Positions 1,467-21,949 are shown, counted from the stretch's first letter. The stretch is 64,000 nt of DNA from Candidatus Calditenuaceae archaeon HR02 (GCA_002898395.1 BEHE01000009.1:15392-79391), one strand, 5' to 3'. A program made the numbers and translations. Notes: generated by a model not told the origin, from the sequence alone.

Positions 1467-1552
1467 ACCCGTTCAAGCAATTCCTAGTGTGTGAAGGTTT
1501 ATAAAAGTTGAGTCAAAGCTTTTGACAGGCGCTATACGGTATTATTTGTGAG

Positions 1553-1630: not shown

Positions 1631-1668
1631 ACCACATTGAAACGTCAATAATTTTAAATTTTTCAATT

Positions 1669-1740: not shown

Positions 1741-1802
1741 TTCTTCAGAACCGTATACCAATGCTGTAACAAATAACCCTTATCTCCTCTACATCGGAGC
1801 TG

Positions 1803-3182: not shown

Positions 3183-3231
3183 TATGCTCCCTATGGTTGG
3201 TTTTAGGGTTTGCTGGAAAACATGTGAGGGC

Positions 3232-4122
3232 TTAACGCATTGAACCCATTGTCGAGAGCTTGTATGAGAGCTGGAGGGCCTCCCAGTAAAGCTGTGGCGT
3301 GCCTATATCCATCTTCAGACCATCCTCAAGCTTGATCGCGTCAACCCTATACCCCCACTCAATGAGACGCTGTATCCCATCGGTTAGCTGGAGCTCGCCG
3401 CCAACACCACTCTTTATAGATCTGAGCGCCCTGAATATCGAATCCCTGAAGATATAGAGCGGGACAATCATCAGGTTCGAGCGGGGCACCTTGGGCTTCT
3501 CCTCAACCCGCGTAACCCGTAAAAATCCTCCGACCTCGGAGACCTCTGCCACCCCGTACTGTCTCGGATCTTCAACCTCCTGCAGTAGAAGAACAGCCTC
3601 AGCACCCTCAGCCTCGAAGTGTCTATACATACGCTCAATCACTTGCGAGCCGTTAACGATGTATGTGTCCCCTGCATGGACGAAGAATGGAGAGCCTCCA
3701 ACAGTCTTCTCACAGATGAGGACTGCGTGCCCGAATCCTAGGGGCTGGGGCTGGTTGACCCATACTAGTACAGACTCACTAATCCTCCTGTAGAATGCCT
3801 CGAAGTCCCTCAGTAGGAAGTTCCTACTCCTCTTAATCATCTCGAGATAACCCTGGTCTGGCGTGAAGTGGTCCTCCACAGCCCTCTTTCCCCTACCAAC
3901 CACGAGTATGAACTCCCGAATGCCAACATCGAAGAGCTGCTCGAAGATCAGCTGCACAATAGGCTTCACACAGAGTGCCCCCTCCTCACTTCTGGCGAAG
4001 ACTGGGAGCATCTCCTTCGGCTGCTCCTTAGTGGCTGGAAGCATCCTTGTACCCAAGCCAGCGAGAGGAAGGACGGCCTTAAGCTCCTCGACGCCCATAA
4101 GCTCGCGACACAAAACCACCAC
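3232..4122 (-). CDS. galU: UTP-glucose-1-phosphate uridylyltransferase (GalU-like)
   Basis: LPLAGLGTRMLPATKEQPKEMLPV matches the GalU signature; also LGFGHAV and QLTDGI motifs. Confidence 0.75.
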   Translation of the reverse strand: MVVLCRELMGVEELKAVLPLAGLGTRMLPATKEQPKEMLPVFARSEEGALCVKPIVQLIFEQLFDVGIREFILVVGRGKRAVEDHFTPDQGYLEMIKRSRNFLLRDFEAFYRRISESVLVWVNQPQPLGFGHAVLICEKTVGGSPFFVHAGDTYIVNGSQVIERMYRHFEAEGAEAVLLLQEVEDPRQYGVAEVSEVGGFLRVTRVEEKPKVPRSNLMIVPLYIFRDSIFRALRSIKSGVGGELQLTDGIQRLIEWGYRVDAIKLEDGLKMDIGTPQLYWEALQLSYKLSTMGSMR

Positions 4123-4259
4123 ACCGGTATTAAAGCAGCTCCCTATCCTCTAAACCCAGCCCAGCCGGCAGCCCAATGTTGTGGGACTACCTATTTCTCA
4201 CCCCTTTACTCCGAACCGACTATTTTTATCATAGAGTATGCCATAACACTTGTAGGGGA

Positions 4260-5831
4260 ATGACCCACGGAGGAGGCCGGGGCACTACCAACAGAGAGAA
4301 AGTGCTCATCCTTGACTTCGGAGGCCAGTATACCCACCTCATAGCCAGGAGATGCAGGGAAGCTGGCGTCTACTCAGAGATAGTGCCCTTCAACATTTCA
4401 CCAGAAGAGATAAGCCGCTATAGTAACGTTAAGGCGCTTATATTCTCGGGAGGGCCTAGGAGCGTCTACGAGGAGGGCGCACCGCATCCTGACAAGAGGG
4501 TGCTCGAGACGGGTATACCTATACTGGGGATATGCTATGGCCACCAGCTCCTTGCAGAGCAGCTTGGAGGTAAAGTGGTGCGTGGTTCTAAAGCTGAGTA
4601 CGGGAGAGCCATAGTTAACGTGGTTGAGGACTCGGCGCTCTTCGCATCACTTAACAAACGTTTTGAGGTGTGGATGAGTCATGGCGACGCTGTGCTGAAG
4701 ACGCCTGAGGGATTTAGGGTGACAGCTATCTCTGAAGACAACCTCATCGCTGCAATGGAGAACGCGGAGAAGAAGATATACTCGGTGCAGTTTCACGTCG
4801 AGGTGAAGCATACACCACCTGGTATGCAAATTCTCAAAAACTTCCTCAAGAACGTGGCCGGTTGTAGATGCGATTGGCGGCCAATAGACATACTGGATGA
4901 GGTTGTGAGAAGCGTCGCCGAGACCGTGGGGGAGGATGAGAAAGTTATCTGCGGTGTCAGCGGAGGGGTAGATTCCATGACCACCGCGGCCATTATCCAG
5001 AGGGCTATCGGTGATAGGCTCCATGTAATATTCATAGATCACGGGCTTCTCAGGAAGGGAGAGAGGGAGCTTGTATTAGAGGGTCTGAAGCTCCTCCAGA
5101 TAAAAAATGTACACTTCATCGATGCAAGTAGGGAATTTCTGATGGCCCTTCGCGGAGTCAGGGACCCCGAGGAGAAGAGGAGGATTATAGGGCGGGTGTT
5201 TGTAGAAGTCTTTGAGAAGGTTGCATCCAGTATAGGGGGCGCGAAGTATCTTGCACAGGGAACGATATATCCCGACAGGGTGGAGAGTGGCGCAACTGGA
5301 GCCCTGACAAGCCTCATCAAGAGCCACCACAATGTCGCCGGATTGCCAGAAAAGCTCGGACTACAGCTAATAGAGCCGCTAAAAGACCTCTACAAGGATG
5401 AGGTCAGAGAGGTCGCGAAGACCCTAGGTCTACCTGCATCCGTGATAGAAAGGCACCCATTCCCCGGCCCAGGCCTAGCAGTTAGAGTCGAGGGGGAAGT
5501 GACGGAGGAGAAGCTGAGAATCTGCCGGGAAGCGAGCGCTATTGTAGAGGAGGAATTCCATAGAGCAGGCCTATACGGCTCGGTTTGGCAGGCGTTCGCC
5601 GTTGTGCTTGACTCGAAGTGGGTGGGGGTCAAGGGCGACGCCAGAAGCGTTGGCCACGTAGTTGTCGTTAGGGCTGTAACGAGCGAGGACGGCATGACCG
5701 CTGACTGGTATCCGGCACCCAGCGAGCTGATGGACAGAATCTCACGGAGAATAACAAACGAGGTTGAGGGCGTGGTTATGGTGGCCTATGCCCTCACCTC
5801 TAAACCCCCCGCCACAATAGAGGCTTACTAG
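4260..5831 (+). CDS. guaA: GMP synthase (glutamine-hydrolysing), with GATase and ATP-PPase domains fused
   Basis: VLILDFGGQYTHLIARRCRE start; GICYGHQ catalytic Cys; SGGVDS PP-loop; the ORF-track start at 4176 is probably an upstream extension. Confidence 0.85.
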   Translation: MTHGGGRGTTNREKVLILDFGGQYTHLIARRCREAGVYSEIVPFNISPEEISRYSNVKALIFSGGPRSVYEEGAPHPDKRVLETGIPILGICYGHQLLAEQLGGKVVRGSKAEYGRAIVNVVEDSALFASLNKRFEVWMSHGDAVLKTPEGFRVTAISEDNLIAAMENAEKKIYSVQFHVEVKHTPPGMQILKNFLKNVAGCRCDWRPIDILDEVVRSVAETVGEDEKVICGVSGGVDSMTTAAIIQRAIGDRLHVIFIDHGLLRKGERELVLEGLKLLQIKNVHFIDASREFLMALRGVRDPEEKRRIIGRVFVEVFEKVASSIGGAKYLAQGTIYPDRVESGATGALTSLIKSHHNVAGLPEKLGLQLIEPLKDLYKDEVREVAKTLGLPASVIERHPFPGPGLAVRVEGEVTEEKLRICREASAIVEEEFHRAGLYGSVWQAFAVVLDSKWVGVKGDARSVGHVVVVRAVTSEDGMTADWYPAPSELMDRISRRITNEVEGVVMVAYALTSKPPATIEAY

Positions 5832-5885
5832 CCAGCTGAGGCCCAATCAGAGTTAAATTCCACCAGATGACAGCTGGAGTAGAGT

Positions 5886-6647
5886 TTGCGGATAGCTTAT
5901 TTCGTCGGGACAGCAGGGTCTGGGAAATCCTCGCTGACAGCGGCCTATGCAGAGTGGCTGAAACAAAATGAACAGAGCGTCGCGACGGTAAACTTAGACC
6001 CTGCCGCTACAGTCCTCCCCTACGAGCCAGAAGTAGACATCAGAGAATACGTCGACTATGAACGGATGATGCTTACATATAATCTAGGCCCTAACGCCGC
6101 ACTCATCGCCTCGGTGAGAGAAGCTGTGAGGGAGATCGACACACTCTGCTCAGAGATCATGGACCTCTCGGTAGACTATGTGCTAATCGATACGCCTGGC
6201 CAGCTAGAGTTATTCGCCTTCAGGAAGGAGGGTAGAGCAATCGTTAAGGCCCTCAGAAGGGTTCCAAGCATCATAATATATCTAATGGATCCAGTCGCGA
6301 GCCACACGACAAGGCTATTTGCATCCTCGCTATTCCTAGCCACATCGGTCTATCTCTCACTCAACCTCCAATCAATCATCGCAATATCGAAGATCGACAT
6401 AGTCCCGAAGAGAATACTTAGACGAATCCGCAGATGGATCTCTTCACAGGAAGCCCTCGAGGTTGATATAGAGTCTAGGAGCCAAGGCATGCAAATGCTT
6501 ATAACAAGGGATATTGTTCATATTTTGCACGACATTGGCAGAACATTTCCGGTTATTGCTGTGTCTTCCAAAACACTGGAAGGACTGGGAGCGCTCCACG
6601 GCGCAGTCACTAGAGCACTTAGTGAGGGTGAATATGAGCTCAGATAG
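5886..6647 (+). CDS. GPN-loop GTPase
   Basis: GTAGSGKSS P-loop, NLGPNAA (GPN) and DTPGQLE motifs. Confidence 0.75.
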   Translation: MRIAYFVGTAGSGKSSLTAAYAEWLKQNEQSVATVNLDPAATVLPYEPEVDIREYVDYERMMLTYNLGPNAALIASVREAVREIDTLCSEIMDLSVDYVLIDTPGQLELFAFRKEGRAIVKALRRVPSIIIYLMDPVASHTTRLFASSLFLATSVYLSLNLQSIIAISKIDIVPKRILRRIRRWISSQEALEVDIESRSQGMQMLITRDIVHILHDIGRTFPVIAVSSKTLEGLGALHGAVTRALSEGEYELR

Positions 6648-7547
6648 GTGGTCCTTATGAGCATCGAGGAAGAGATTTCGAGAGAGATCGGCGAACTAAA
6701 GGACAGGATAAGCGAGCTGGACAGGAAGATTGAGGAGATAAACACGAAAATCAGCAAAAACATCTCGGAGAGAGACAAGACACATGATAAGATGAGAGAG
6801 ATAAGGGAGAAGGTAAAGAGGCTAAAGGAGGAGAAAGCATCACTCATGGAAGAGAGCAGAGCCTTGAGACGAGAGGTGAGAGAGCTGAGACAGAAGCTGC
6901 TTAACTATGTCATAGAGAAGAGGCAGCTAAAGGGTGAGCTGAAGAACCTGAGACTTTCGATGGATGTGAATAGGATAAAGAAGAGGCTCGACGAGATAGA
7001 TCTCTATCTAACATCTCATAGGGTGAGTAGAGAGGAAGAAAGAAAGCTCTTCGAGGAGGCTTCAAAGCTTGAGGCGATGCTCATAGACTATGAGAAAGCC
7101 CTAAAGATACACCTCTCACTGAACGAACTCTCACCCCAGATGGAGGAGGTTAGGAGAGATCTTGAAGAGAAGAGAAAGAGGCTTGAGAGTGTGACAGCTA
7201 GGCTGGGCCAGATCTCGATGGAGATGGAGGCCCTTAACAATCTTTACGACAATCTTAAGAGTGAGGCAGATAGATACCACTCCAGCTACATCGAGGCTAG
7301 AGAGGAGAGAGACAGGCTTGAAGCCGAGAGAATATTAGCAGCTTCTAGAATATACGAGCTCTACAGACTCCTGAGGGGTAAGAGGGAGGAGCTGCTAAAG
7401 AAGAGGATCAGCGAGGTCAAGGCTAAGAGAAAGAAAGAGGCCATCGAGAAGCTGGAGAGAGGGGAGAAGCTAGAGTTTGAGGAGATGAAAATATTGCTGG
7501 AGGATGAGACCCTCTGGCAGCCAAACGGAGGAGCAAGACAATCATAG
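6648..7547 (+). CDS. Coiled-coil protein, E/K/R-rich, function unknown; coupled to the GPN GTPase gene
   Basis: Heptad-like charged repeats through the whole 299 aa; start overlaps or abuts the upstream stop. Confidence 0.4.
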   Translation: MVLMSIEEEISREIGELKDRISELDRKIEEINTKISKNISERDKTHDKMREIREKVKRLKEEKASLMEESRALRREVRELRQKLLNYVIEKRQLKGELKNLRLSMDVNRIKKRLDEIDLYLTSHRVSREEERKLFEEASKLEAMLIDYEKALKIHLSLNELSPQMEEVRRDLEEKRKRLESVTARLGQISMEMEALNNLYDNLKSEADRYHSSYIEAREERDRLEAERILAASRIYELYRLLRGKREELLKKRISEVKAKRKKEAIEKLERGEKLEFEEMKILLEDETLWQPNGGARQS

Positions 7548-7879
7548 CGGGGAAGAAGAAACCGTATATAACCCTTTAAATATCATTACCAGATGGTATG
7601 TTGAAAAATTGTTACCAATATTACGGCATACTATGAAATAGATCTCCGCTAAGATTCGTCTGAGAATCCCATGTCTACTGGCCGGAGAGAATAACTTTGC
7701 CTTCATATGTACTGATTACATTATTCATAGAGAGGACAGGCGACCTAGCCCTGAGTAAGATGCACAAGGCCCATAAATGTTTATCGTAGTGATTGGTAAA
7801 CTACGGTAGAATCATAGTGATGGGTTAAACGCCCAAATTAGGGAAAAATGGGGGAGGGGGTTAGCCCAGCAGACAACCA

Positions 7880-8129
7880 GCCCAGCAACAAGGATAAACC
7901 CGAGGCCGGCATGTCAAGAAGGTTAACGGACTGGCATTTTCGCCAGTCATGTCTGGAGTTTAAACGGCCGGCCTCTTTTGGGTTTCCTAGATGTTGTTGG
8001 GCTGGTTGTCCGATGGCTAACCCCCCGTCTTTCCATTGTTTAAGTTTTTAATCCTTCACTATGGTTGTCGGATGATATTGAGTGTTTTAAGCCGCTCTCT
8101 CGGCCCCTCTTAGAGAGCCTTCTCGCGAC
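7880..8129. repeat. Intergenic repeat family C, copy 1 (~250 bp), structured, candidate ncRNA or MITE
   Basis: About 85% identical to 31928..32188; reading frame is not conserved between copies; internal hairpin gactggc/gccagtc enclosed by a gaggccgg/ccggcctc helix and an outer cccagcaaca/tgttgttggg pairing. Confidence 0.6.
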
Positions 8130-8351
8130 CTTCTACGAGTCTGTCAAATATCTGCTCCTCCAGCTCGCTCATCCTAGACTTCAGCTGGCCAAGGGCCTCG
8201 TTAAGAAGATTCTCACAGGTCTGTGCCTCGCTTAGTAGAGCGTTCCTCTCGTCTGAGAGCTGGTTGAGCTTCTTCACGGATCGGAGGTCTGGGCACTACT
8301 TATCAACCCCAATAAAGTCCCAGGTAAGATAACCACAAGGCTGGACTTCCT

Positions 8352-9551
8352 ATGCTACCAGTCATGGTAGGTTTTAAATTTAAAGAGGTAATCATGTATG
8401 TCTGGGGTTGGATGGCTGAAGAGGCGAAGAGGCCGCTCCTGATACTGGTTATTGATGAGGATAATGATGTCGGGGTTAAGGCTGGGGTACAATCCCCCAT
8501 CATAGGACGTGAAAAAAACCTGGAAGCGGCTCTGAAGCTTATCATGGCAGACCCCGAGGATGCCGATGCCAATGCGATGTTCGCCGCCATCAAGATATTC
8601 GACAATGAGTCGCATAGGTGGCCTAATGGTGTTGAGATAGCTACTGTGACGGGAAAACATGATGGTGGACTTGAGTCAGACCTGAAGATTTCAAGGGAGA
8701 TAGAAAGCGTTATCAGGCAGCTGGGGGCTACCGAGTGTATTGTAGTCTCAGACGGTCCACTCCCCTCATCACTCTCATCTATCATCAGCTCACGCATCAA
8801 GGTAGTCTCGTCCAGAACAGTAATTGTCAAGCAGAGCCAGACGATAGAGACTAGCTGGATACTATTCCTCAGATACCTCAAAATGCTCGTCTACGACACC
8901 TCCTATTCAAGAATAATTCTCGGAGTCCCCGGCATACTATTATTATTAATGGGAGTGCTTCATTTTTTCAATCTGCTCAGCCTACCCCTCCTCCTAATCT
9001 TTGTGGGAATCGCGCTCCTCGTTAGGGGGTTCGGAATAGATGCGGCCTTCTCAGGCCTCATCCGGAGACTGGCCGAGATATCGAATAAACCTAGTCTAGT
9101 ACAGCTACGTATATTCACAGCCGTTGTCGGTCTGATTCTAATAATAGTCGCTTTTGTAGCGGGTTTTCAGGCGGCCTTAAACTATCTTCAATCCGCTTTA
9201 AGGGGTGGGGAGCTAAACTTCGAGCAGGTTCTTCCGCGCATGGGACCATTCGCAGGTGTGTTGATAGTCAATAGCATAGACTTGATAGCTATTGCCGCAT
9301 TCCTCAACACAGCCTACAACATATTCTACTACTATCAGATGAAGAGTACTCGCGTTTGGAGGCATGTACAAGCCATGCTGATATTCTTCTTCCTCTGGAT
9401 TATGATGAGGCTGCTCGGAGCCTTCCTTACCACACAGAGCATCGTCTACCTCATACAGCTTGTATTGATCGCGCTGATAGGTTTCGCCTCGCTGCTAACC
9501 TCTATTACGATTATAAGATCGATCAGAAGTATGAGGGCGCCTAAGCAATGA
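8352..9551 (+). CDS. Conserved archaeal membrane protein (DUF373-like): cytoplasmic N-domain plus a multi-TM C-terminus
   Basis: Hydrophobic helices fill the C-terminal half; N-terminal LILVIDEDNDVG domain; real start may be an internal Met. Confidence 0.4.
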   Translation: MLPVMVGFKFKEVIMYVWGWMAEEAKRPLLILVIDEDNDVGVKAGVQSPIIGREKNLEAALKLIMADPEDADANAMFAAIKIFDNESHRWPNGVEIATVTGKHDGGLESDLKISREIESVIRQLGATECIVVSDGPLPSSLSSIISSRIKVVSSRTVIVKQSQTIETSWILFLRYLKMLVYDTSYSRIILGVPGILLLLMGVLHFFNLLSLPLLLIFVGIALLVRGFGIDAAFSGLIRRLAEISNKPSLVQLRIFTAVVGLILIIVAFVAGFQAALNYLQSALRGGELNFEQVLPRMGPFAGVLIVNSIDLIAIAAFLNTAYNIFYYYQMKSTRVWRHVQAMLIFFFLWIMMRLLGAFLTTQSIVYLIQLVLIALIGFASLLTSITIIRSIRSMRAPKQ

Positions 9552-12099: not shown

Positions 12100-14424
12100 T
12101 TAGGTTCGCACTACGTCGTGTATCACTATTGTGGTCTTCCCGTCTATCTTGTGTATTGTGGCGAGCGCTTTGAAGACTTTCCCCTTCTTTATTAGGTCTC
12201 TGGGGCCGTTGTATGCTGTTGCGTCGAGCCTCGCCCTAAACCTGTCATCAACCACTACTATCGCGAATCCTGGATAGATCTTCTCGACCATTATCTCGTG
12301 GACTTTCTCGGGGGCCTTGGAAGCCTTCACAGCGGCCTTTGCAACATATCTTTCACCCGACTTGACCACTAGTCCGTCCCTGACTAGCCTGTTCAACGAT
12401 ATCCTGACTATGTCGGGGCTGTGGCTGAGAAGGTCCATGGCATCGGCCATGGATAAGCCCTTAACTCCAGCCTCCAGAAGCCTGTCGTAGAGCTCTCTCC
12501 TACACCTGAGAAGCTCCCCATAGCTGATCTTGGAAGTATCAATAGAGGGTTCGCTCTCCTTGGTCTTCTCTAATTCACCTTCAACCACCACTTCTAGCGC
12601 GTCCCGCCTCCAGGGCCACGGCTCTCCGGGCTTAGGCTCAGGCCCCCTCCTCTCGACCTTGAAGCCGCTCAGCTTCTTCGAGACGTTCTCAAGGATTTTA
12701 GCCATCTTCCTAGCCCTCCTATACCCTTCCCTGAAGTAGTATTCGTCCACTGTTTTCTCCGTGATGAGAATGGTTACTTTCCCAGGTAGTCTCCTACCAG
12801 TCCTTCCCCTTCTCTGTATGTATCTTATCCCTGAGACTGCCGGCTCGTAGAATATAACGTATCCGCACTCAGGTATGTCTAGGCCCTCCTCTCCTATAGA
12901 TGTGGCTACTAGTACTTTGAATTCTCCCCTCCTGAAGGCATCTAGTATCTTCTTCTGCTCCTCCTGGCTCATCCTCGGGCCCATCTTACCCTCACCCTTA
13001 CCTATGAAGAGGTGTGCAGATACTCCTCTAGACCTTAGCCGCTCAACCAGTATCTCGGCCGTGTGCCTAATATTGGCGAATACCATAATCCTGTCACCCG
13101 GCTTCTCCCTTAGGTGCTGGTCGACTAGGGCTAGGAGGGCCTCGACCTTGCTGTGGTCCTCGCTGCACTTCTCAGCCATCCTGACTAGCTCCTGGAATTC
13201 TGGTCTCCTAGAGAGCATCTTGTGGCTCTTCAGCTCCGAGTTTGAGATCTCCCTCAGATACTCCCTCAACGAGTAGGCGTGCTGGCTCTCTATCAACTCC
13301 AAGGCATGGTAGAGGCTCAGGAGCTCAGAGCATAGTGCCACGTAGTGCATGTTCTGGCCCTTAACGCCTGAGTCTATCTCAGCCCTAAGCCTAGCCATGA
13401 GCTGGACTATCACCTTCCTGTTTATGCCCTCTAGCGGAGACCTGAGCAGGCCATATGTCTGTAGTTGCCTAGCCGTAGACTCTATCATCCGCTTTATACG
13501 GCTCCTAATCGCCTCGTATGACTGTGGGAGCCCCAGCTTAACCCACGCAACCTTAACCCCTGGAATATAGCTCGAGACATCCTCATCCTCCTCTGTCCTC
13601 CAGACAATCCTCTCTATCCAGAGGTTCTTGACGACCTCGAGCACTCTCTCCTCCTCGCTCCCCGGACTAGCTGTAAGCCCGAGAATCCTGGGCCACGGGC
13701 ATTTCCTAACGTATTCGGACGCGAGCCTAGTATAGGCGTATCTGCTCCTACTTCTGTGGCACTCGTCGAAGACTAGTAGGGCGAACTCCTCAAGCCTTAT
13801 CCAGCCCCGTCTATAGTCGTTATAGGCTGTCTGGGGTGTTGAGAATACCAGCCTGATAGAGGGGTTCTCCCAGACCATTCTCCTATTGGTGTCCACCACC
13901 TCTCCGGTAACGGCCACGGCCTCGCCCTCCGATATGTTGAGGTGTTTTAGGAAGCTCTGCCTGTGCTGTAGGACTAGCGGCTTGGTTGGAGCCATCATGA
14001 GTATTCTGCATCTAGGATGCCTGTGGAGCAGCTCTGCGGCCACTAGCTCGGCTATGACAGTCTTACCCAGTGCTGTGGGTAGGACTACTAGAGTATTGCC
14101 CTTGAGGGCTCCCCCAACCATCCCCCTCTGATAATCTCGGTCCTCGATCGTCTCGGTCCTAACCATGGGATGAGTTACAAACTGCCTCATCTCCACCCTC
14201 TCAACCTCCTCCGTTGTTCTCTCTTGGACGACTGTTTGGTTGGGCGTCGGGGATGCCAATAGACCCTCAGCAACCTTCACCGCATAGATGTGCTTACAGT
14301 CCCTGCCCTGCTTCTTGGCCCTGTATACGTAGTCAGGGCATGTGCACGTGAATTTTTCCCCGTCAAACGTTACTCTGTAGGTCTTTGAGGGGTCTTCCTG
14401 GCTGGGGACATCCCAGACACGCAT
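12100..14424 (-). CDS. Hef/FANCM-family SF2 helicase with N-terminal SWIM-type zinc finger and C-terminal winged-helix-like region; no ERCC4 nuclease domain
   Basis: N-terminal FTCTCPDY...CKHIYAV (CxCxnCxH); Walker A LPTALGKT; DECH box; LGLTASPG motif III typical of Hef/RIG-I/FANCM. Confidence 0.7.
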   Translation of the reverse strand: MRVWDVPSQEDPSKTYRVTFDGEKFTCTCPDYVYRAKKQGRDCKHIYAVKVAEGLLASPTPNQTVVQERTTEEVERVEMRQFVTHPMVRTETIEDRDYQRGMVGGALKGNTLVVLPTALGKTVIAELVAAELLHRHPRCRILMMAPTKPLVLQHRQSFLKHLNISEGEAVAVTGEVVDTNRRMVWENPSIRLVFSTPQTAYNDYRRGWIRLEEFALLVFDECHRSRSRYAYTRLASEYVRKCPWPRILGLTASPGSEEERVLEVVKNLWIERIVWRTEEDEDVSSYIPGVKVAWVKLGLPQSYEAIRSRIKRMIESTARQLQTYGLLRSPLEGINRKVIVQLMARLRAEIDSGVKGQNMHYVALCSELLSLYHALELIESQHAYSLREYLREISNSELKSHKMLSRRPEFQELVRMAEKCSEDHSKVEALLALVDQHLREKPGDRIMVFANIRHTAEILVERLRSRGVSAHLFIGKGEGKMGPRMSQEEQKKILDAFRRGEFKVLVATSIGEEGLDIPECGYVIFYEPAVSGIRYIQRRGRTGRRLPGKVTILITEKTVDEYYFREGYRRARKMAKILENVSKKLSGFKVERRGPEPKPGEPWPWRRDALEVVVEGELEKTKESEPSIDTSKISYGELLRCRRELYDRLLEAGVKGLSMADAMDLLSHSPDIVRISLNRLVRDGLVVKSGERYVAKAAVKASKAPEKVHEIMVEKIYPGFAIVVVDDRFRARLDATAYNGPRDLIKKGKVFKALATIHKIDGKTTIVIHDVVRT

Positions 14425-14457: not shown

Positions 14458-14754
14458 TTGAATGCCTTCATATGTTTGATGAGCTATCGTAGGGGTAGGA
14501 GGTTTGAGTATGAGGTTAGGGATTATTTTGGGAGTAGGGGCTGGCTTGTAATAAGGGCCGCTAGGAGCAAGCCAGTAGACCTGGTGTGTATTAAGGGTGG
14601 TAGGGTGGTTCTGGTTGAGTGCAGGTATGCTGGAGGAAGGCTCACGAGGAGTGAGAGGAGGAGCCTAGCGAGGATGGCTAGGAGGTATCGTGTCGGTGTA
14701 ATTATAGCTCATAGGAGGGTGAGGGGAGGTCTGGAGCTTACGACAGTGAAGTAG
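14458..14754 (+). CDS. Mini Holliday-junction-resolvase-like PD-(D/E)xK nuclease (Hjc family); probable start at the internal Met (MSYRRG)
   Basis: Aligns by eye with Hjc: RGxxxExxVxxxxxxxGWxVIRAAxS...VDLVxIKGGxVVLVECR; divergent from the helicase gene. Confidence 0.55.
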   Translation: MNAFICLMSYRRGRRFEYEVRDYFGSRGWLVIRAARSKPVDLVCIKGGRVVLVECRYAGGRLTRSERRSLARMARRYRVGVIIAHRRVRGGLELTTVK

Positions 14755-14838: not shown

Positions 14839-15177
14839 CTATATTTCTAGTGACTCGTCTGGGCTTGTTTCCTTGGGGTTTACCTTTTCAATGGCCTTTA
14901 GAACGTCTTCTAGCCTCTCGTCGGAGAGTAGTTTCCTGAATGTCTCAAGCTCGTCTACTGTCCTTAGGATTAATCCCCTCTTCTTGGTTGGCGCTCCATC
15001 ATCACCCACAGGGTTAATCTCTACTAGTAGTGATGCTGGCCTGCCTCTAGATGCTGGTGCCTTGACGACGAATATTCCCGGAGAGCCCCTAACCGGAACC
15101 CTCTGCCAATCCCTACCACTCTCAAGAACCCTCCTCAAAGACTCTTCCAGCGTCATCGGCTGAGGAGGTGAATCCAT
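14839..15177 (-). CDS. Hypothetical protein
   Basis: ORF only; no motif recognised. Confidence 0.3.
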   Translation of the reverse strand: MDSPPQPMTLEESLRRVLESGRDWQRVPVRGSPGIFVVKAPASRGRPASLLVEINPVGDDGAPTKKRGLILRTVDELETFRKLLSDERLEDVLKAIEKVNPKETSPDESLEI

Positions 15178-15669
15178 GCATATAAGCGTAGCAGCCTCTC
15201 TTCCTAGCCATAAGCCATCAAAATAATGATTAGACAGTGGATAAGTCAGTTACGCTCAATGGATGAATTGAATACTGTTCCGATGTCTGAAGCTACTCAG
15301 AGGGCCTGGTTGGGAAGAGGTCTAAGAAAGCCTCCAAGAAGTCACGCGTCAGGGAGAAGGCTAGGAAGACAGCTAAGAAGCCTGTAGAGGCTGGGGAGAA
15401 GCCTGCTGAGACCGAGCCTGTAACTGGGGTTTGGGACTCCGACTTAGCTATCCTCCCTAAATATCGTCATTTTTCGTGGTTCCATCTTGTTAGAAGGTCT
15501 TTTCCAACGCTTGCCACATCCGCTTTCCTTATCGACTACGTAGATTACGGGTCTCTGCATATTTAGTGCGTGTCCCTTGCCTTACCTTGAGGGCGAATAT
15601 GTCCTGGCCCTTCTGCGTCGAGACACTTATTGACTTCCAATACAAGATAAAAGCGGATTCGCAACAGCA

Positions 15670-17949
15670 CTAAGCAACCTCGTCGATCATAGTAGGGGCG
15701 TTCGTGGACAACTCCCTTTCAAACCTGAATATCTTAGCTTCGGCGCCCTCGAACACTTCCTCGTCATGGGTTATAATTATCACCTGCCTAACTGCCTTGC
15801 TCAGGCTAGTGAAGACGTCTAGCAGCCTCTTTCTATTTTCTGAGTCTAAATGGATTGTGGGTTCATCGAGAATGAAGAAGCCCAGTCTCTGGGCGCCCAA
15901 CACATCCCCTATCGCGAACCTGAGTGCCAGGGCAAGGGCAACTTTCTCTCCCCCGCTTAGCCTACTCATATCCACTTCTCTGCCCCTGAAGAAGCATTTG
16001 AACATGATTTTTACGCCGCTTTCCTCGATCTTGACATCATCTATCCTGACGTCAAAGGCGTCTAAGTAGCTCTTGGCGTGGTCTGCAACCTTTCTGAATA
16101 TCCACGTCCTCAGGCTCCTCAATACTACACCATCGCGGTAGAACAACTCGTTCCTTACCTTATCCATGAGCCTGTAGAACCTCTCGGCCCTGACAAGTAC
16201 TTCCCTGACCCTTTGCAACTCTTTAATCTTCTTTTTAGCCTCCTCAAGCTCTTTCTCAACGCTTTCCAATCTTGCCTCTCGATCGCTGATCAATTTTATG
16301 AGACCCTTTTCTTCGACTTCCAGCCTTCCGAGTTCTTCAGGATTGAATTCCTTTTTCCGAGCCTCCTTCACTCTCTCTTTCAGCCAAGGGAGGAGCTGCT
16401 CTCCCTCTTCTCCGATTAGCCTACTAATGTCCTCGAGTAGCTGGTCTTCTAGATTGACTTCTCCCCAGATCACTTGATTTAGCGTCTCCAAACTCCGCTT
16501 AGCCTCCTCTAACATGGCTTTAGCTTTCTTAACACCTTCCGGGCCCCCGATCTTTTCTAGTTCTTCCGACGCCCTCTTAACCTCTTCACGTAGCCATGAG
16601 ACCTCTTTCCCATATAACTTGCTGAGGTTATCTCTCTCCTTCTTGGCTTCATCTAATTTCTTTGTGAGAGAGCGTAGTTCCCGGTCTATTTCCTCGAGCT
16701 GCTTACTTACCTGGTCGCGCTCCTTTTCCCGGTTGGCAACATGGCTTGCTAAGGCGGAGCTATACGCCTCTGAGACCACCGCCACAACCTCTTCTACTTC
16801 TTGGTCTACCTGTAGGCTGAGGAGATTTATCTGGCCTCCCTTACTAATAGCTAGGGTTCTGCCCAGCTCGATCGCGTCATCCCTAAGCTTCTCGGCTTTG
16901 ACGCGGGCCTCCTTTTCAAGTTCTTTTAAGGTCTTAGCTTTCGAAGCATCCACCTTGACCCTGCCCAGCTCGTCTTCTATCTCCTTCAAGCGTTTACTCG
17001 CTTCTTCCCTCCTCGCCTTCAGTGAGAATAAGTCGCCTTTAATCTTCTCGATCTTCTTATCAAGTTCCTCTACACTCTTAACTCTCTTTTCTATATCGTC
17101 CTTCAACTCTATCAACTTAAGATACTCTAAGCCCTTCTCCGAGATGTCTCGCAACCGGGTCACTTTATCATTCAATAAATCCCTAAGCGTTAGGAGGTCT
17201 AATCGTATTTTTTCAAGAAGTTCTCTCACCTGTCTCAGCTCCTTAATCCTTGCGTCTACTTTTTCTTTCATTCGTTTAAGCTTATCTAGCTCCTTTTGTA
17301 GTGATGCTCTTGTTTCCTCACCTGTTTCGGCCTTCTTTTCAAGCCCTCTTAGTTCTTCACCCACCTTATCGGCCTCTCGCGGGGGCCTCCCAACCTCCCT
17401 GACCACCCTCTCTTCAAAGCTTTTGAGGACTTCAAGCATGGCATAGTAGGCTTTTTCCATGGCAGTGAGACCCATTAAGTCGTCGAACAGCTCTTTGAGG
17501 TCTTTTGGATCAGCGGAGAGTATCTTATCGAGTTCTCCCTGCTGGATTATCACCGCGGTTCTCATCCTATCGTAGTTTAGTTCGAACAGTTCTTGAACAG
17601 CCTTTGATACGGTTTCTTCCCCTCTCTTCTCACCGGAGGCAATTAATTCCCCATCCTTTCTCAGCGTAGCGGATTCAAGGTTTCCTCTCACGTCAAAGCT
17701 CCTAACGATCTGATACTTACTGCCCCTATACTCGAATTCGAGCTCAACTCTACCGCTGTCTGTCCCGTCTCTCACAATATTCCTATTTCCGCCCTTCATG
17801 TGCTTCCCATAGAGGGCGTAGGTTATCCCGTCTATCACGGAGCTCTTGCCAGAGCCGTTTCTCCCAAGGAAGATAGTCAATCCTTCTGGAAACTTTATCT
17901 CGGTTTCTTTGTGGCAGGTGAAGTTTAGGAGCTTAACCCTCACTATCAC
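15670..17949 (-). CDS. rad50: Rad50-type SMC-like ATPase (DSB repair), no recognisable CxxC zinc hook
   Basis: N-terminal GRNGSGKSS Walker A; long coiled coil; C-terminal LSGGEKV signature; FILDEPTIHLD Walker B; only two Cys in the whole protein. Confidence 0.8.
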   Translation of the reverse strand: MIVRVKLLNFTCHKETEIKFPEGLTIFLGRNGSGKSSVIDGITYALYGKHMKGGNRNIVRDGTDSGRVELEFEYRGSKYQIVRSFDVRGNLESATLRKDGELIASGEKRGEETVSKAVQELFELNYDRMRTAVIIQQGELDKILSADPKDLKELFDDLMGLTAMEKAYYAMLEVLKSFEERVVREVGRPPREADKVGEELRGLEKKAETGEETRASLQKELDKLKRMKEKVDARIKELRQVRELLEKIRLDLLTLRDLLNDKVTRLRDISEKGLEYLKLIELKDDIEKRVKSVEELDKKIEKIKGDLFSLKARREEASKRLKEIEDELGRVKVDASKAKTLKELEKEARVKAEKLRDDAIELGRTLAISKGGQINLLSLQVDQEVEEVVAVVSEAYSSALASHVANREKERDQVSKQLEEIDRELRSLTKKLDEAKKERDNLSKLYGKEVSWLREEVKRASEELEKIGGPEGVKKAKAMLEEAKRSLETLNQVIWGEVNLEDQLLEDISRLIGEEGEQLLPWLKERVKEARKKEFNPEELGRLEVEEKGLIKLISDREARLESVEKELEEAKKKIKELQRVREVLVRAERFYRLMDKVRNELFYRDGVVLRSLRTWIFRKVADHAKSYLDAFDVRIDDVKIEESGVKIMFKCFFRGREVDMSRLSGGEKVALALALRFAIGDVLGAQRLGFFILDEPTIHLDSENRKRLLDVFTSLSKAVRQVIIITHDEEVFEGAEAKIFRFERELSTNAPTMIDEVA

Positions 17950-19069
17950 TCCCAGCCCAATCCCTCGGCCACGATTTCCAAAGCTTCCAGACAGCTTCCT
18001 TCGCGTTTACTAGATCTCCTGAAGCTAGGCGAGGGAGTAGCTCGTTTAGGGCAAAATCTATGACCTTCTCGTCTCCTATCGCCTTCACCGCGAGCCTTCT
18101 GAGCTCCCCATCAATACTAATCTCCGGCTCGCTTGCGTATACCTTTCCCTCAGTTGGGGCTGGAATCACCTGTAGCCTCTTGATTATGAACTTATCACTA
18201 AGCCTCTGCTCAATACTCTGGACACTTACCGGCCTATCGGCCTTGACGACAAGCCATAAGCATGGCTTGGACGGATAGTCGACGCCGGTGATCTCCTTGA
18301 CCTTCTCGTCAAGCTCTCTTACATCTACCTCGAGTCTGAGTTTCGGCCTAACGTTTGGGAGCCTGACCCATTCGGCTAGGGCCTGATCACCTGATAAATC
18401 CACTATGAAGACGCCGCACTCACCGGAGTCGTCGACCTTGACCCAATGCGTTGCTCCGGGGTAGGCTAGTAGTCCACTTCCCCAATTCCGTTTATAGCTC
18501 TTATGAATGTGCCCCATCGCATAGTAGTCGAATCCGGCAGGTAGCTCGAATATCGAGAGCTCGGCTCCAAGCTCCCAGGCCTCCTTTATCCCCTGATGGA
18601 GGACTAGGACCTTCTTTCCCCCTATATTCGGTAGCATCCTCTGAATTTTTTCAAATTTTTCTATGAGAGATTTCCACTCAACCCGCTTATGCTTATGGAG
18701 GCCTATTACGGTAACCCCTCCAACTTGGTATGGTTCGCCTGTTCCAATATATCTGCCGAGGCCCTGTAGCTGTAGGATTATGGGATGCGGCGTTGAGGGG
18801 ACGTTGCTTATGTCATGCTCTCCGAGCGTGAATAAGAATGGGATGCCGCGCCCTTTCAGCTTTCTCACTTCCTGGATCAAGACCTTCATTGCTGTTCCAT
18901 AGGGTTTCGGCTCATGTAGAATGTCTCCTGAGTGGATTACGAGTTCAACTCTTTCTCTGATGAATAGGTCTATGGCATCCTTAAACGCATTGTAGTGGTC
19001 TTCTTCTCTCTCTGGCTCGACTCCCGCATGGACCCCCAGATGCGTGTCGGATATGTGACCGATCATCAT
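17933..19069 (-). CDS. mre11: Mre11 DSB-repair nuclease (calcineurin-like phosphoesterase)
   Basis: MMIGHISDTHLG, HSGDILH, GEHD and MGHIH phosphoesterase motifs; overlaps the rad50 start. Confidence 0.85.
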   Translation of the reverse strand: MMIGHISDTHLGVHAGVEPEREEDHYNAFKDAIDLFIRERVELVIHSGDILHEPKPYGTAMKVLIQEVRKLKGRGIPFLFTLGEHDISNVPSTPHPIILQLQGLGRYIGTGEPYQVGGVTVIGLHKHKRVEWKSLIEKFEKIQRMLPNIGGKKVLVLHQGIKEAWELGAELSIFELPAGFDYYAMGHIHKSYKRNWGSGLLAYPGATHWVKVDDSGECGVFIVDLSGDQALAEWVRLPNVRPKLRLEVDVRELDEKVKEITGVDYPSKPCLWLVVKADRPVSVQSIEQRLSDKFIIKRLQVIPAPTEGKVYASEPEISIDGELRRLAVKAIGDEKVIDFALNELLPRLASGDLVNAKEAVWKLWKSWPRDWAGSDSEG

Positions 19070-20562
19070 AGCTTTATCAGCTCCTCCGTCGAGTAGTCGG
19101 AACCAGAACCATACTCTCTCTCCCATAAATCGACTGCATCCAAGTCTCTACCGATCAACTTCTCCTCTACGAGATCCACCTTAACGAGGGCTGGAACTTT
19201 GATGAACTGGCCTGCGAGTATCATCTCTCCTGGGTTCAGGCTTGGTAGAGAGGTGCCGAGCTCTTCTGATACGTCGTCGGTGACCTCCCTGACGAAGTTC
19301 TGGTCTTTTGGATGTATTAGACCTGAGATCGCAAAGCTCCCCATCTGACTTATCGTGTCGGCGTCCAGCTTGCTCGGCCTCTGCGAGATGATTATCAGCG
19401 ATACCCCGAACTTCCTACCCTCCCTAGCAATTCTCGCGATTATCTCCGAGCACCTAGTCCGCCTTTCTGATGGGAGGAATGCATGAGCCTCCTCTATCAC
19501 CACTATCACAGGCGACTTGAACTTCGCCCCGCCCTCGCCCCTAACCGCATTCTTCCTATCCTGCAGTATCTCTTCTAGGTAGCGATCAACTATGATTTGG
19601 GACTGATATTCCGTCAACTCTGAGATATCGAGGACGTTTACCCTATTGTTGACGATTACATCGAGTGGGCTTCTAGCCGAAGGATCGAATACCTTTCCCC
19701 ACACGGTTAGAGCCCTGTTGATTATCTCGGTAACGCTCACAGCCCTAATCCTCGTCTGGAAATCAAAGTTGTTATCATCCACGGCTATTGCCTGAAGTCT
19801 TCCAATAATAGCCCCCCAGAAGTCTTCAGCCTCCCTAACCTCTTGAGTATAGACTTGTTGAAGTAAGCCCCTCTGCCTTTCGGCATCCCTCCTGACTCCC
19901 ACCAAGTCTGCCAACTCCTCTGCATCTAGGTATCGGGGATTTATCTTCGGTATGGTAATCTTTATTCCGGGGATTCTTAACTGATCGTATTCTCCATGAT
20001 AGTCGAATATCACCATGGTCCCATGTCTTTCGGAGACCTTCTTAGCGAGAAGGGCTAAGAGATTTGACTTGCCCTTGCCAGTTGCCGCCAATATCGCTAG
20101 ATGCCTCGAGGCGACCATGTTCAAGTTTATCGATACCCTGACCTCGGGCCTTCTCAGCAGATAGCCCACGCCCACCCATCTCTTCCCCTCGGAGCCGTAG
20201 ATACTCTTCAGCAAATCATCTCCGGCCGGTTTAACAGATGCTCCAGGCTCAGGCGGCAACGTAGGGTAAATTCTCCTACCCTCCAATAGCTCATTAACGA
20301 GTCCAAGAGCCCTAGCGATGCCTATCCTAACCCTATCTCTCGGGTTCTTACTGCTTGCCCGCCTCACCTCGTCAGCAGTTTGGTAATCTGTTTCATTTTG
20401 CAACAACTCACTGATGTTCCTAAACCCCTCAACCATGTAGACTATGGGCCCATCCTCGGTGTCCACAACTACATAATCCCCAACTCTTACTGGGTACTTC
20501 GCCACGAACTCTATCCTATCGGGTCTCGCCTCCCCTATCACGATTCCGACCTCGTCGCTCAT
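19066..20562 (-). CDS. herA: HerA hexameric DNA helicase/translocase
   Basis: HLAILAATGKGKS Walker A; N-terminal HAS barrel region; position inside the Mre11 operon. Confidence 0.85.
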   Translation of the reverse strand: MSDEVGIVIGEARPDRIEFVAKYPVRVGDYVVVDTEDGPIVYMVEGFRNISELLQNETDYQTADEVRRASSKNPRDRVRIGIARALGLVNELLEGRRIYPTLPPEPGASVKPAGDDLLKSIYGSEGKRWVGVGYLLRRPEVRVSINLNMVASRHLAILAATGKGKSNLLALLAKKVSERHGTMVIFDYHGEYDQLRIPGIKITIPKINPRYLDAEELADLVGVRRDAERQRGLLQQVYTQEVREAEDFWGAIIGRLQAIAVDDNNFDFQTRIRAVSVTEIINRALTVWGKVFDPSARSPLDVIVNNRVNVLDISELTEYQSQIIVDRYLEEILQDRKNAVRGEGGAKFKSPVIVVIEEAHAFLPSERRTRCSEIIARIAREGRKFGVSLIIISQRPSKLDADTISQMGSFAISGLIHPKDQNFVREVTDDVSEELGTSLPSLNPGEMILAGQFIKVPALVKVDLVEEKLIGRDLDAVDLWEREYGSGSDYSTEELIKL

Positions 20563-21446
20563 TCCTCAAGCACCTCCCTAGCCTCGACCCATCCGGTTAG
20601 GCCGGCCGTCTTACAGATAAGATCCATTAACTGGTCTGGCAGGTTGGCGGTCTTGTGGGCTAGCCTGAGGGCGTAGGGATAGCCAGCGATGGACCTTTCA
20701 CGCAGAACGTCTATGAACCATTTGACGGAGTCTTCTTCTACTACGGCTGGCACTTCTATGTGCAGGGCGTTGGAGTGCTCTGACAATCTAACGTAGAATA
20801 TCGAGAACTTATAATCTTCTCTTTCGATGACATGTGGTGCCGTATACCCTACCCCCTTGGTTGCATGGTTAATGTAATATACGTCTCCGAGAACTCCGCC
20901 GAATAGGCTTTTATCATGCGAATATTTCGAGACGAATGCTAGCTTATCGTTGCCCATGAGAGGTTTAACGTAGGCCATGTATTCAGTCTGAAGGCTTTTG
21001 GAAATTCTTTTACTGATATCAGCCAGCCTAGCAATAAGGGAGCCATCAACTAGAACTAGGTCAGGGTCCTCCTCTTCGGAAACATTATAGGCTATGCTAT
21101 GCTCGTGGATCTCGGCCTGGTACTTAAGGAAGAGATCTGGAGACAGGGCCGCGTCGTAGGGGTCGCCTGATAACATATCAACATCCGTTACGGATTGGTA
21201 GGTGTTCACGGCCTCATCAACGGCTGCCGCCTTCATGGCGTAGATATAGAAGCCTGTGTAGAGCCTGTAGTTCCAACCGCTGTCAATAGCGAGGATACCA
21301 GCCCTTCTCGGCTTTGGGCTATATTCTATATAGCAAGCCCTCGCCCTGTCCAAGATCTCTTTAACCGTTCCCGCCCCATCCGTTCTCTTAAATTCCTCGA
21401 GCTTGGCCTTCAGGCGGACGGCCTTCTCGAAAAGCTCCTCCAGCAT
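20559..21446 (-). CDS. nurA: NurA 5'-3' nuclease
   Basis: ILAIDSGWNYRL motif carrying the catalytic Asp; translationally coupled to herA. Confidence 0.75.
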   Translation of the reverse strand: MLEELFEKAVRLKAKLEEFKRTDGAGTVKEILDRARACYIEYSPKPRRAGILAIDSGWNYRLYTGFYIYAMKAAAVDEAVNTYQSVTDVDMLSGDPYDAALSPDLFLKYQAEIHEHSIAYNVSEEEDPDLVLVDGSLIARLADISKRISKSLQTEYMAYVKPLMGNDKLAFVSKYSHDKSLFGGVLGDVYYINHATKGVGYTAPHVIEREDYKFSIFYVRLSEHSNALHIEVPAVVEEDSVKWFIDVLRERSIAGYPYALRLAHKTANLPDQLMDLICKTAGLTGWVEAREVLEE

Positions 21447-21559
21447 CGAGTAAAGGCTTGACCAACGGGTATATATGAATTGGTGGTCCTCCCAGCGATT
21501 TTTCTCAGCATCTCCACTATCGATTCATGGATACATACTTCAAACTAGCTCCAAACCTT

Positions 21560-21949
21560 CTAGATTAGATTGGTTAGGTAACTCTTAATCCGTATATAAC
21601 TGGGAGCTCGGTCACTATGTGGAGCTCCCTGAATAATTTGTCTCGAGATTACTATGCTTAGCTCCCCCCTGGCTTGGGCTTCCAGCCTCCTAGTGTGTGC
21701 TGCCTTTATCAGCTCCGCTATTGATTCTGGGTCTCTCCTTATGTCTGATGCCTGTATTCTGAATACGTCGTATCCAGCCTCCCTCAGCGTCTCAATCTTC
21801 CTCATGTCCTTCTCCTGTATCCTTTCCTGGTAGTGCTGGAGGCCGTCAACCTCGACGACTATCATGCTATCCGGTATGAGTATGTCCACGTTATATCCCT
21901 CGAAGTACACGTTGGTCACGTGGCGTATGTCCCGTCTCCAGAGCTCCAC
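21560..21949 (-). CDS. DUF559-type endonuclease domain protein (Vsr/restriction-endonuclease-like fold)
   Basis: VDILIPDSMIVVEVDGLQH ... KIETLREAGYDVFRI pattern. Confidence 0.55.
   Translation of the reverse strand: MELWRRDIRHVTNVYFEGYNVDILIPDSMIVVEVDGLQHYQERIQEKDMRKIETLREAGYDVFRIQASDIRRDPESIAELIKAAHTRRLEAQARGELSIVISRQIIQGAPHSDRAPSYIRIKSYLTNLI

Follow-up and report, generated by a model that had tools for sequence, protein, structure and literature searches.

Exactly what the zinc hook of Rad50 does is debated: it may be a simple permanent linkage, it may open in a regulated manner, or it may switch the complex between rod and ring. According to reviews, the hook is what defines Rad50 and lets it dimerise, and is conserved from phage to human (PMC7752040, PMC10586767, PMC5093744). 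It is a dimerisation module that the unrelated MukB hinge can functionally replace, and two chimeras, S. pombe Rad50 with a MukB hinge and B. subtilis Smc with a Rad50 hook, indicate that any stable dimerisation module suffices at the apex (PMC6969161). The coiled coils beside the hook can also co-align as a rod (bioRxiv 10.1101/2020.06.24.160820).

Here we describe a Rad50 that has no such hook, encoded in a 64,000-nucleotide stretch of DNA (the window) from the hot-spring archaeon Candidatus Calditenuaceae HR02. Our literature search for naturally hook-less Rad50 proteins, those of Aigarchaeota included, found no published description among the papers it covered, which did not extend to subscription-only ones.

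The operon and its four proteins

The preliminary description of this DNA recognised four overlapping minus-strand genes for NurA, HerA, Mre11 and Rad50. The open reading frames, Pfam, NCBIfam and the overlaps at the junctions all agree with this. The genes, and a putative promoter element, are as follows.

20559..21446, minus strand: nurA, 295 aa, first gene of the operon (Pfam NurA, PF09376)
19066..20562, minus strand: herA, 498 aa, hexameric helicase/translocase (Pfam and NCBIfam)
17933..19069, minus strand: mre11, 378 aa, its ATG overlapping the herA stop (Pfam and NCBIfam)
15670..17949, minus strand: rad50, 759 aa, GTG start, hook-less (SMC_N, AAA_23, SbcC_Walker_B)
21470..21477, minus strand: CATATATA, a putative TATA-like box of the archaeal kind lying 24-31 nt 5' of the nurA ATG, proposed from reading the sequence

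A Pfam search confirmed the NurA domain (PF09376, 80.4 bits against a cut-off of 21), and the best NCBIfam match of this protein is NurA_Sulf (E=1e-20). HerA has the DUF87/HerA central domain (PF01935, 112 bits) and the HAS barrel (PF09378), both above the Pfam cut-offs. It aligns end to end with the NCBIfam model HerA_Thermprot (NF040937, E=6e-95) and carries a Walker B motif, VIVVIEE, at residue 352. Mre11 matches Pfam Metallophos above cut-off, and also Metallophos_2, as well as the NCBIfam model Mre11_Sulfo (E=7e-47). Its phosphoesterase motifs DTH, GDILH, GEHD and GHIH account for motifs I-V of a calcineurin-like enzyme. The third of these motifs reads GEHD in place of GNHD across the lineage, hook-bearing relatives included. 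The likely start of mre11 is at 19069 (the longest open reading frame runs to 19126); the orthologues, of 372-379 aa, all begin MMIGH, as the protein does from this start.

The nurA/herA junction is an ATGA overlap, and so is herA/mre11 with the corrected mre11 start, while mre11 lies immediately upstream of rad50 and overlaps it by 17 nt. The order nurA-herA-mre11-rad50, as first described, is conserved within the clade: order and overlaps are kept in four orthologous loci (L082, L083, L084 and L090) and partially in another (L091). The adjacency of mre11 and rad50 is likewise conserved across orthologous loci, and this suggests that the two proteins are partners. That the order differs from the Sulfolobus-type herA-mre11-rad50-nurA was also noted before; the latter is as given in PMC10470591, and the point is correct but minor. 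With a NurA nuclease, a HerA translocase, an Mre11 nuclease and a Rad50 ATPase, this is predicted to be the operon for chromosomal double-strand-break resection in a Caldarchaeales ("Aigarchaeota") archaeon. Its flanks in the window hold housekeeping genes, namely a Hef-type helicase, an Hjc-like gene and DnaJ. No small partner gene is conserved 3' of rad50, the downstream ORFs being unrelated between the loci compared, and Rfam gave no match within the 490-nt gap.

The head of Rad50 is encoded in two parts, and it has the Walker A, signature and Walker B motifs reported earlier together with a Q-loop, D-loop and H-loop.

17383..17949, minus strand: N-terminal ATPase half, residues 1-189 (Walker A, Q-loop)
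15670..16140, minus strand: C-terminal ATPase half, residues 604-759 (signature, Walker B, D-loop, H-loop)

The motifs lie at residues 29-36 (Walker A), 136-139 (Q-loop), 664 (signature, LSGGE), 691 (Walker B), 700 (D-loop) and 726 (H-loop), and all of these catalytic motifs of the bipartite ABC-ATPase head are invariant in 23 orthologues. Among Pfam families, SMC_N and AAA_23 pass their gathering scores and SbcC_Walker_B falls just short (26.6 against 27). The best NCBIfam matches are five Rad50 equivalog models, the top one, NF041034, scoring 220.7 bits against an equivalog cut-off of 1000. A score below the cut-off is expected, because these models are lineage-specific (Sulfolobus, Pyrococcus, Halobacteria) and the host phylum is distant from them. 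The closest solved structures are the Rad50 heads of M. jannaschii and P. furiosus (E=2e-44), and the top Foldseek matches are also Rad50 structures.

Hook absence and the conserved apex

The claim that this Rad50 has no CxxC at its apex holds: a direct motif scan finds none in the entire 759 aa. The Pfam hook family Rad50_zn_hook (PF04423) has no match either. Two sister-group proteins with genuine CPxC hooks (P0043 and P0025) escape this model too, which leaves the direct scan as the valid test. The protein was said to have only two cysteines, near residues 12 and 655; the count and the first position are right and the second cysteine is at 652, both lying in the head. In the orthologue alignment the coiled coil (residues 190-603) has no conserved Cys or His. 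Its sole histidine, H403, occurs in fewer than half of the clade members and is not conserved. The peptide ISKGGQINLLSLQVDQEVEEVV is residues 367-388. Alignment with hook-bearing relatives uncovers no hidden Cys/His motif and no conserved metal-binding motif at the apex, nor is there a conserved His, Cys or Asp/Glu cluster of structural-zinc type. The window holds no second, hooked Rad50. No hooked match is labelled Aigarchaeota, most database entries being without an organism name, and a scan of contigs with the Rad50 alignment (generic P-loop and Q-loop peptides) returned mostly bacterial ABC/SMC loci and no Caldarchaeales genomes.

Is this a local deletion, or is it shared with related genomes? 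The hook is absent from all 24 close homologues (identity 40-100%; those with a label are Aigarchaeota or Nitrososphaeria), whereas a central CPxC is present in 96 of 96 more distant matches and in 93 of 93 sister-group proteins. Altogether, 189 of the 189 next-nearest relatives that were checked have a CPxC. On these counts the missing hook is far from a chance pattern. The hook-less clade forms 9 clusters among 1.84 billion representatives, with a bit-score gap from 561 to 487 before hooked proteins appear. A neighbour-joining tree built from head domains has the hook-less proteins as a monophyletic group (100/100 bootstraps), sister to hook-bearing Nitrososphaeria Rad50, and points to a single loss of the hook. 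Every outgroup lineage has hook-bearing proteins, and the only other hook-less tips (P0218 and P0231) are far away, beside a hooked one (P0210). The clade is nested among hooked archaeal Rad50 in a tree that is supportive of descent from the Rad50 lineage, not definitive, because the method is simple.

Arm lengths in the clade, including an excess of about 50 residues in the C-terminal arm, equal those of the hook-bearing sister proteins. Judged from the homologue counts and the tree, hook absence is clade-wide and of single origin, and the comparison indicates that the hook was replaced and not deleted. Two features of Rad50 mark the site.

16735..16929, minus strand: apex module, residues 341-405, two conserved helices at the position of the relatives' zinc hook
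16810..16854, minus strand: apex loop, residues 366-380, variable, indel-rich and Gly-rich, with a predicted turn at 369-373 (orthologue alignment and AlphaFold2)

The helices, residues 341-365 and 381-405, stand either side of this loop and have the consensus AE+LRDDxIELG+xLA and VxQxVExVVxxVSEAYxSALA. In an alignment that is shallow (23 sequences), residues 341-396 are the most conserved 56-residue span of the coiled coil (2.35 versus 1.49 elsewhere). By the same measure, the peak in the hooked sister group falls on the hook itself (2.72 versus 1.45). L355, E361, G363 and V392 are invariant, and A352, L377, V389, E394 and Y396 nearly so; the relatives' pre-hook G-R/K-L motif aligns with invariant G363. 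The C-side helix has a hydrophobic occupancy of 42% at non-a/d positions, compared with 8-20% in ordinary arm segments. Conserved residues outside a/d are L377, V389, Y396, V404 and A405 on the C side and L344 and I360 on the N side, and residues 388-408 are the least charged and most hydrophobic 21-residue span. As measured in this alignment, purifying selection within the coiled coil is strongest at the apex, which also bears an extra conserved hydrophobic face.

The full-length AlphaFold2 model (mean pLDDT 80) has helices from 190 to 603 that fold back at 369-373, which makes a long antiparallel coiled coil. The preliminary description had called the coiled coil continuous. Its length is confirmed; strict continuity is not, as AlphaFold2 predicts five breaks (330-340, 443-449, 468-469, 495-501 and 533-536). 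The same turn is predicted in a fragment model, where the stem has a pLDDT of 94-98 and the apex hairpin a lower 65-76; overall the apex pLDDT is 59-76. The lower value is weak evidence, which would fit an element that requires a partner. The monomer models show a simple hairpin and no additional domain. When the apex fragment was searched with Foldseek, all matches were generic antiparallel coiled coils at E values no better than 0.09, and searches of the apex profile against PDB sequences and of the apex peptide against Pfam gave noise only, e.g. designed helical bundles at E of about 0.07.

Possible roles of the apex

We favour the explanation that a zinc-free hydrophobic dimerisation tip has replaced the zinc hook in an otherwise ordinary resection operon whose Rad50 was vertically inherited, and put its probability at about 0.55. 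The clade's Rad50 would descend from an ordinary zinc-hook protein, and in the clade ancestor a cysteine-free helical hairpin would have taken the place of the CPxC hook at the same position in the arm. Two apex hairpins may then pack hydrophobically, through an interface resembling a four-helix bundle or a rod, and so join both Rad50 arms without zinc. Such joining would preserve the closed M2R2 ring or rod by which canonical Mre11-Rad50 clamps and senses DNA ends. That said, the extra hydrophobic face could have another use: it might fold back onto the arm, for example, or bind a different protein.

The main rival, which we consider unlikely, is that the arms are not joined at their tips at all. 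M2R2 would then be an open-armed clamp whose only ties are the Mre11 dimer and the ATP-driven engagement of the heads, with the apex serving some purpose other than homodimerisation. The lack of a metal site and of a globular dimerisation domain suits this, as do the variability and indels of the extreme tip loop. In addition, nurA and herA are always in the clade's operon, compared with mre11-rad50 alone in two hooked relatives, which could hint that tasks are shared out differently. Against this, the peak of coiled-coil conservation lies in the apex helices, and their conserved non-core hydrophobics are hard to explain for a free tip. The hook's role is stable linkage of the arms, and losing hook dimerisation separates the arms in the systems studied (PMC6969161). 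It is unlikely, too, that this is an Mre11-Rad50 machine working naturally without tip linkage, with closure of the ring at the apex, which is regarded as essential for sensing and tethering DNA ends, dispensable in a whole archaeal order; coupling to HerA-NurA, or an apex acting otherwise, might compensate.

Less probable still is that the apex docks a further factor, acting in trans to bridge the arms or regulate them, be it HerA-NurA, some small protein or DNA. A conserved exposed hydrophobic patch suits any protein-protein interface, and the coupling to nurA-herA is strict within the clade, but no small gene is conserved beside rad50, where the ORFs vary between loci, and no family or structure match points to a known binding module.

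Some defence-type SMC-like ATPases (LmuB, MADS or Septu-like) are naturally hook-less, and the hook is not universal among LmuB homologues (PMC10586767). PADLOC matches this Rad50 to mad3 (130 bits) and LmuB (125 bits), and several orthologous loci lie near restriction, methylase, OLD or PLD genes. However, Rad50 double-strand-break repair models outscore these at 220 bits, and PADLOC has no match for Mre11 or NurA. The gene overlaps a bona fide mre11 downstream of herA and nurA, which are not the Lamassu partners LmuA and LmuC; the flanks are housekeeping genes; and the head-domain tree places the protein as sister to Nitrososphaeria Rad50. On scores and neighbours we rejected a defence system as very improbable. 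A sequencing or assembly error, frameshift or decaying pseudogene, for which we found no supporting evidence, is refuted by an uninterrupted rad50 frame, 0 N bases in the window, invariant catalytic motifs and a hook-less apex that recurs in 24 clusters from many independent assemblies (more than 20 orthologues; some clusters have 40-100 member sequences).

Nature has in effect run an experiment here on what the hook is for: a monophyletic lineage has given it up and yet retains a strongly conserved tip and an intact resection operon. If the tip dimerises without metal, this favours the idea that any stable linkage is enough, and would provide a new small, thermostable coiled-coil dimerisation module that is independent of redox and zinc. 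If it does not dimerise, the need for a closed ring is challenged. For annotators, the lesson is that a missing CxxC does not rule out Rad50.

Comparison with known systems

Like canonical archaeal Rad50 (P. furiosus, M. jannaschii, Sulfolobus), the HR02 protein has an ABC-ATPase head with the full set of motifs and a long antiparallel coiled coil between the head halves. Its gene overlaps mre11 and is linked to herA and nurA, and canonical Rad50 proteins are its best sequence and fold matches. Unlike them, it lacks a CxxC and any zinc site, and its coiled coil is free of conserved Cys or His; a cysteine-free helical hairpin with its own conserved motif forms the apex instead. The Sulfolobales operon (PMC10470591) consists of the same four genes, with nurA coming first in the hook-less clade.

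The closest proteins outside the clade are the hooked Rad50 of Nitrososphaeria (Nitrosocaldus, Nitrososphaera, Nitrosopumilaceae and others), at about 30% identity. They share with it the pre-apex G-[RK]-L, the C-terminal arm excess of about 50 residues and an Mre11 with GEHD as motif III. They differ in having an apex CPxC and, in two loci examined, an mre11-rad50 pair without adjacent nurA-herA.

RecN dimerises via its coiled-coil tip. Like RecN and the hook-less LmuB-type proteins (for LmuB, PMC10586767), the clade's Rad50 is an SMC-like ATPase with a tip that has neither hinge nor zinc hook, but those ATPases are not partnered with Mre11, HerA or NurA and have no detectable similarity to the apex motif. 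The hook-less clade would be a natural counterpart of the engineered Rad50-MukB-hinge and Smc-hook chimeras, with a helical hairpin of about 65 residues and no globular domain where the chimeras have a globular hinge of 150-200 residues.

The nurA-herA-mre11-rad50 operon

The genes nurA, herA, mre11 and rad50 form an intact and conserved operon in this member of the order Caldarchaeales, phylum Nitrososphaerota (the former Aigarchaeota).

The operon and the reading frames in and around it.
12100-14424, minus strand: 774-aa protein, N-terminal SWIM zinc finger and Hef-type helicase core
14458-14754, plus strand: 98-aa Hjc-like Holliday-junction-resolvase ORF, TTG start, Pfam Hjc E=6e-8
14839-15177, minus strand: 112-aa ORF with no family match
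15178-15669: about 490 nt downstream of rad50, ORFs of at most 53 aa only, no Rfam match
15670-21446, minus strand: nurA-herA-mre11-rad50 region, four ORFs of 295, 498, 397 and 759 aa
16514-17446, plus strand: 310-aa Ser/Leu-rich ORF, antisense within the rad50 coiled-coil region
21560-21949, minus strand: 129-aa ORF directly upstream of nurA, DUF559 / REase_MTES_1575-type (Vsr-like endonuclease fold), no PADLOC or NCBIfam match

NurA is assigned by Pfam to NurA, and its best NCBIfam match is the double-strand-break repair NurA model. HerA carries the Pfam HerA central domain and HAS barrel and matches the NCBIfam HerA model end to end (E=6e-95). Mre11 is a Pfam calcineurin-like phosphoesterase (NCBIfam Mre11 model, 7e-47). 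Rad50 matches Pfam SMC_N, AAA_23 and SbcC_Walker_B, as well as five NCBIfam Rad50 equivalog models (best 2.8e-65), all of these below curated cut-offs that were built for other phyla. The nurA/herA junction is an ATGA overlap. So is herA/mre11 if Mre11 begins at its second in-frame Met (19069, 378 aa), a form whose length and MMIGH start equal those of its orthologues; mre11 and rad50 overlap by 17 nt. Inspection of the sequence gives a candidate CATATATA box 24-31 nt before nurA. In Mre11 (17933-19069, minus strand) phosphoesterase motif III, at residue 83, is GEHD instead of the usual GNHD. All five hook-less orthologues share this variant, and so do the Mre11 proteins of two hook-bearing Nitrososphaeria; it is a lineage trait without relation to hook loss.

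The preliminary description gave the gene order as nurA-herA-mre11-rad50. This is confirmed, and each orthologous locus that is informative has the same order (L082, L083, L084 and L090, with L091 partial). The order in Sulfolobales is herA-mre11-rad50-nurA (PMC10470591). Two loci of hooked relatives differ in having mre11-rad50 without neighbouring nurA-herA (L087, and L088 from Nitrosocaldus); HerA-NurA of Nitrosocaldus is encoded elsewhere (PMC5797428). The order marks the clade and is in itself unremarkable. On the L087 contig, Mre11-like/Rad50-like genes occur as two pairs separated by about 2 kb (540-9506), the ATPase of the second pair having 714 aa.

The Hef-like protein matches NCBIfam Hef PRK13766 (E=1.5e-164) over profile positions 2-514 of 781 only, and its C-terminus of about 180 residues has no match to the XPF-type nuclease part of Hef. 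With the Hjc-like and 112-aa ORFs lying between this gene and rad50, the neighbourhood resembles a small recombination and repair cluster. The antisense ORF is most likely no gene and arises as a side effect of the coiled coil's Glu/Lys/Leu-rich codon usage. The operon studied here has housekeeping flanks, whereas those at L082, L083 and L084 are defence- or mobile-element-like, e.g. Mrr_cat, PLDc_2, N6_N4 methyltransferases, an OLD-type TOPRIM ATPase and FtsK/HerA/TrwB-like ATPases.

Distribution and origin of the hook-less Rad50

All the motifs of a Rad50 head are found: Walker A (29), Q-loop (136), signature LSGGE (664), Walker B (691), D-loop (700) and H-loop (726). As first described, the protein lacks CxxC; its only cysteines, 12 and 652, are both in the head. 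An alignment of the hook-less orthologues and a motif scan found no conserved Cys or His across the whole coiled coil. The window contains zero N bases, which argues against a sequencing or assembly gap, and no further Rad50 or SMC-like gene.

Among 5.8 billion proteins searched, 24 homologues have 40-100% identity and are 745-774 aa long (one truncated entry has 681 aa); one deposited from Candidatus Calditenuaceae archaeon HR02 is identical. None of the 24 has CxxC, while 96/96 of the next matches (<=34% identity over full length) carry CPxC at the midpoint. Where named, the hook-less proteins are labelled "Aigarchaeota archaeon" or "Nitrososphaeria archaeon", taxon labels being sparse. When a profile was run against 1.84 billion representatives, they formed nine clusters at 50% identity, and bit scores fell from 561 to 487 where the first hooked protein appeared. 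Another search, started from the nearest hooked protein, added 93 sister-group proteins, every one of them hooked; the named members are Nitrosocaldus, Nitrososphaera, Nitrosotalea and Conexivisphaerales.

A simple neighbour-joining tree (323 head-domain columns, 100 bootstraps) places the hook-less proteins in one clade (100/100), sister to the hooked Nitrososphaeria group. The outgroups are hooked except for a distant pair, P0218 and P0231. The hook-less Rad50 descends from a hooked Rad50, and the simplest history is that the hook was lost once, in the ancestor of the hook-less Caldarchaeales clade. A local deletion, raised as a possible cause, is excluded, since the absence spans the clade. 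The probability of an artefact is negligible: the hook-less clusters span many independent assemblies, some holding 40-102 member sequences, and the same tip in all of these excludes artefact and pseudogene alike.

Domain annotation needs care here. Pfam PF04423 (Rad50_zn_hook) misses the obvious CPxC hooks of two Nitrososphaeria proteins, P0043 and P0025, even at E<=10, so that annotation alone over-calls "hook-less" Rad50.

The distant pair belongs to a second, unrelated group of hook-less Rad50-like proteins (P0218, P0220, P0226 and P0231, 806-823 aa; locus L089 4854-8427), which adjoins the hooked P0210 in the tree. Their apex has about 45-50 hydrophobic residues resembling a transmembrane hairpin, e.g. 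YYKLGIFSTILGTTSSIILLAVSGISMTSLIISSLIVVLAVLSLITSFKKQ. The P0218 gene lies directly 3' of a Mre11-like phosphoesterase gene, and the two may be a membrane-anchored Mre11-Rad50-like pair.

The tip without the hook

The tip of the hook-less Rad50 is conserved and bears an additional hydrophobic face. In an alignment of 23 hook-less orthologues the apex is not degenerate. Residues 341-365 have the consensus TLxELxxEARxKAERLRDDSIELGRxLA (L355, E361 and G363 invariant) and residues 381-405 VxQDVExVVxLVSEAYxSALAS (V392 invariant; V389, E394 and Y396 nearly so), either side of a variable, Gly-rich loop with many indels (366-380). By mean BLOSUM sum-of-pairs score, 341-396 is the best-conserved 56-residue window of the coiled coil (2.35 vs 1.49 in the rest). 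The hooked sister group is equally divergent and served as a control; there the highest score falls on the hook (374-429 in P0043; 2.72 vs 1.45). The peak at the apex in both groups means that the same kind of constraint acts on the tip, with or without zinc.

The invariant G363 aligns to a G-[RK]-L motif just before the hook of hooked relatives, whose CPxC MAFFT sets opposite about E386-V389. Arm-length arithmetic differs from this placement. With a C-arm excess of 51 residues in this protein and 55 in P0043, the hook turn would tentatively correspond in position to the Gly-rich loop.

Among 21-residue windows of the coiled coil, 388-408 has the highest share of hydrophobic residues (58%) and the lowest of charged ones (13%). 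In the best heptad register, hydrophobic occupancy outside a/d is 42% on the C-side apex helix, against 8-20% in ordinary arm segments; conserved residues outside a/d are L377, V389, Y396, V404 and A405 (C-side) and L344 and I360 (N-side).

The full-length protein was modelled by AlphaFold2 with 23 orthologues (mean pLDDT 79.9). Its predicted head resembles that of Rad50, and its antiparallel coiled coil runs from about 190 to 603, turning at 369-373. The coiled coil was described as continuous; it is indeed predicted, but with short breaks at 330-340, 443-449, 468-469, 495-501 and 533-536. The best Foldseek matches of the model are Chaetomium and M. jannaschii Rad50, and the closest solved structures by sequence are the Rad50 heads of M. 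jannaschii and P. furiosus. A model of fragment 280-470 (stem pLDDT 94-98; apex hairpin 65-76, less confident) contains no additional domain, and Foldseek, a PDB profile search and Pfam gave no specific match for the apex.

Joining of the arms and comparison with known Rad50s

We propose, with a probability of about 0.55, that the arms are linked without zinc. Two tips would associate via the extra hydrophobic face, in a four-helix-bundle or rod-like contact. This fits experiments in which the hook acts as a constitutive dimerisation module and the MukB hinge can take its place (PMC6969161), and also the observation that coiled coils beside the hook can co-align (bioRxiv 10.1101/2020.06.24.160820). 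The main rival, an open-armed Rad50 with unjoined tips, is unlikely by comparison. A partner acting in trans at the tip is more doubtful still, as no conserved small gene was found among the neighbours. That the protein is a defence-type SMC-like ATPase is very improbable: its PADLOC scores are lower than its Rad50 scores, and the gene partners are wrong.

Reviews describe Rad50 proteins as using a CxxC zinc hook (PMC7752040, PMC10586767), which has been termed highly conserved (PMC5093744). A full-text search of the freely readable literature found no published Rad50 that lacks the hook and has Mre11 as its partner. Among natural relatives, only some LmuB defence proteins were found described as hook-less (PMC10586767). 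The hook-less protein is a Rad50 by descent and by its partners, and it fails one defining feature of the textbook definition.
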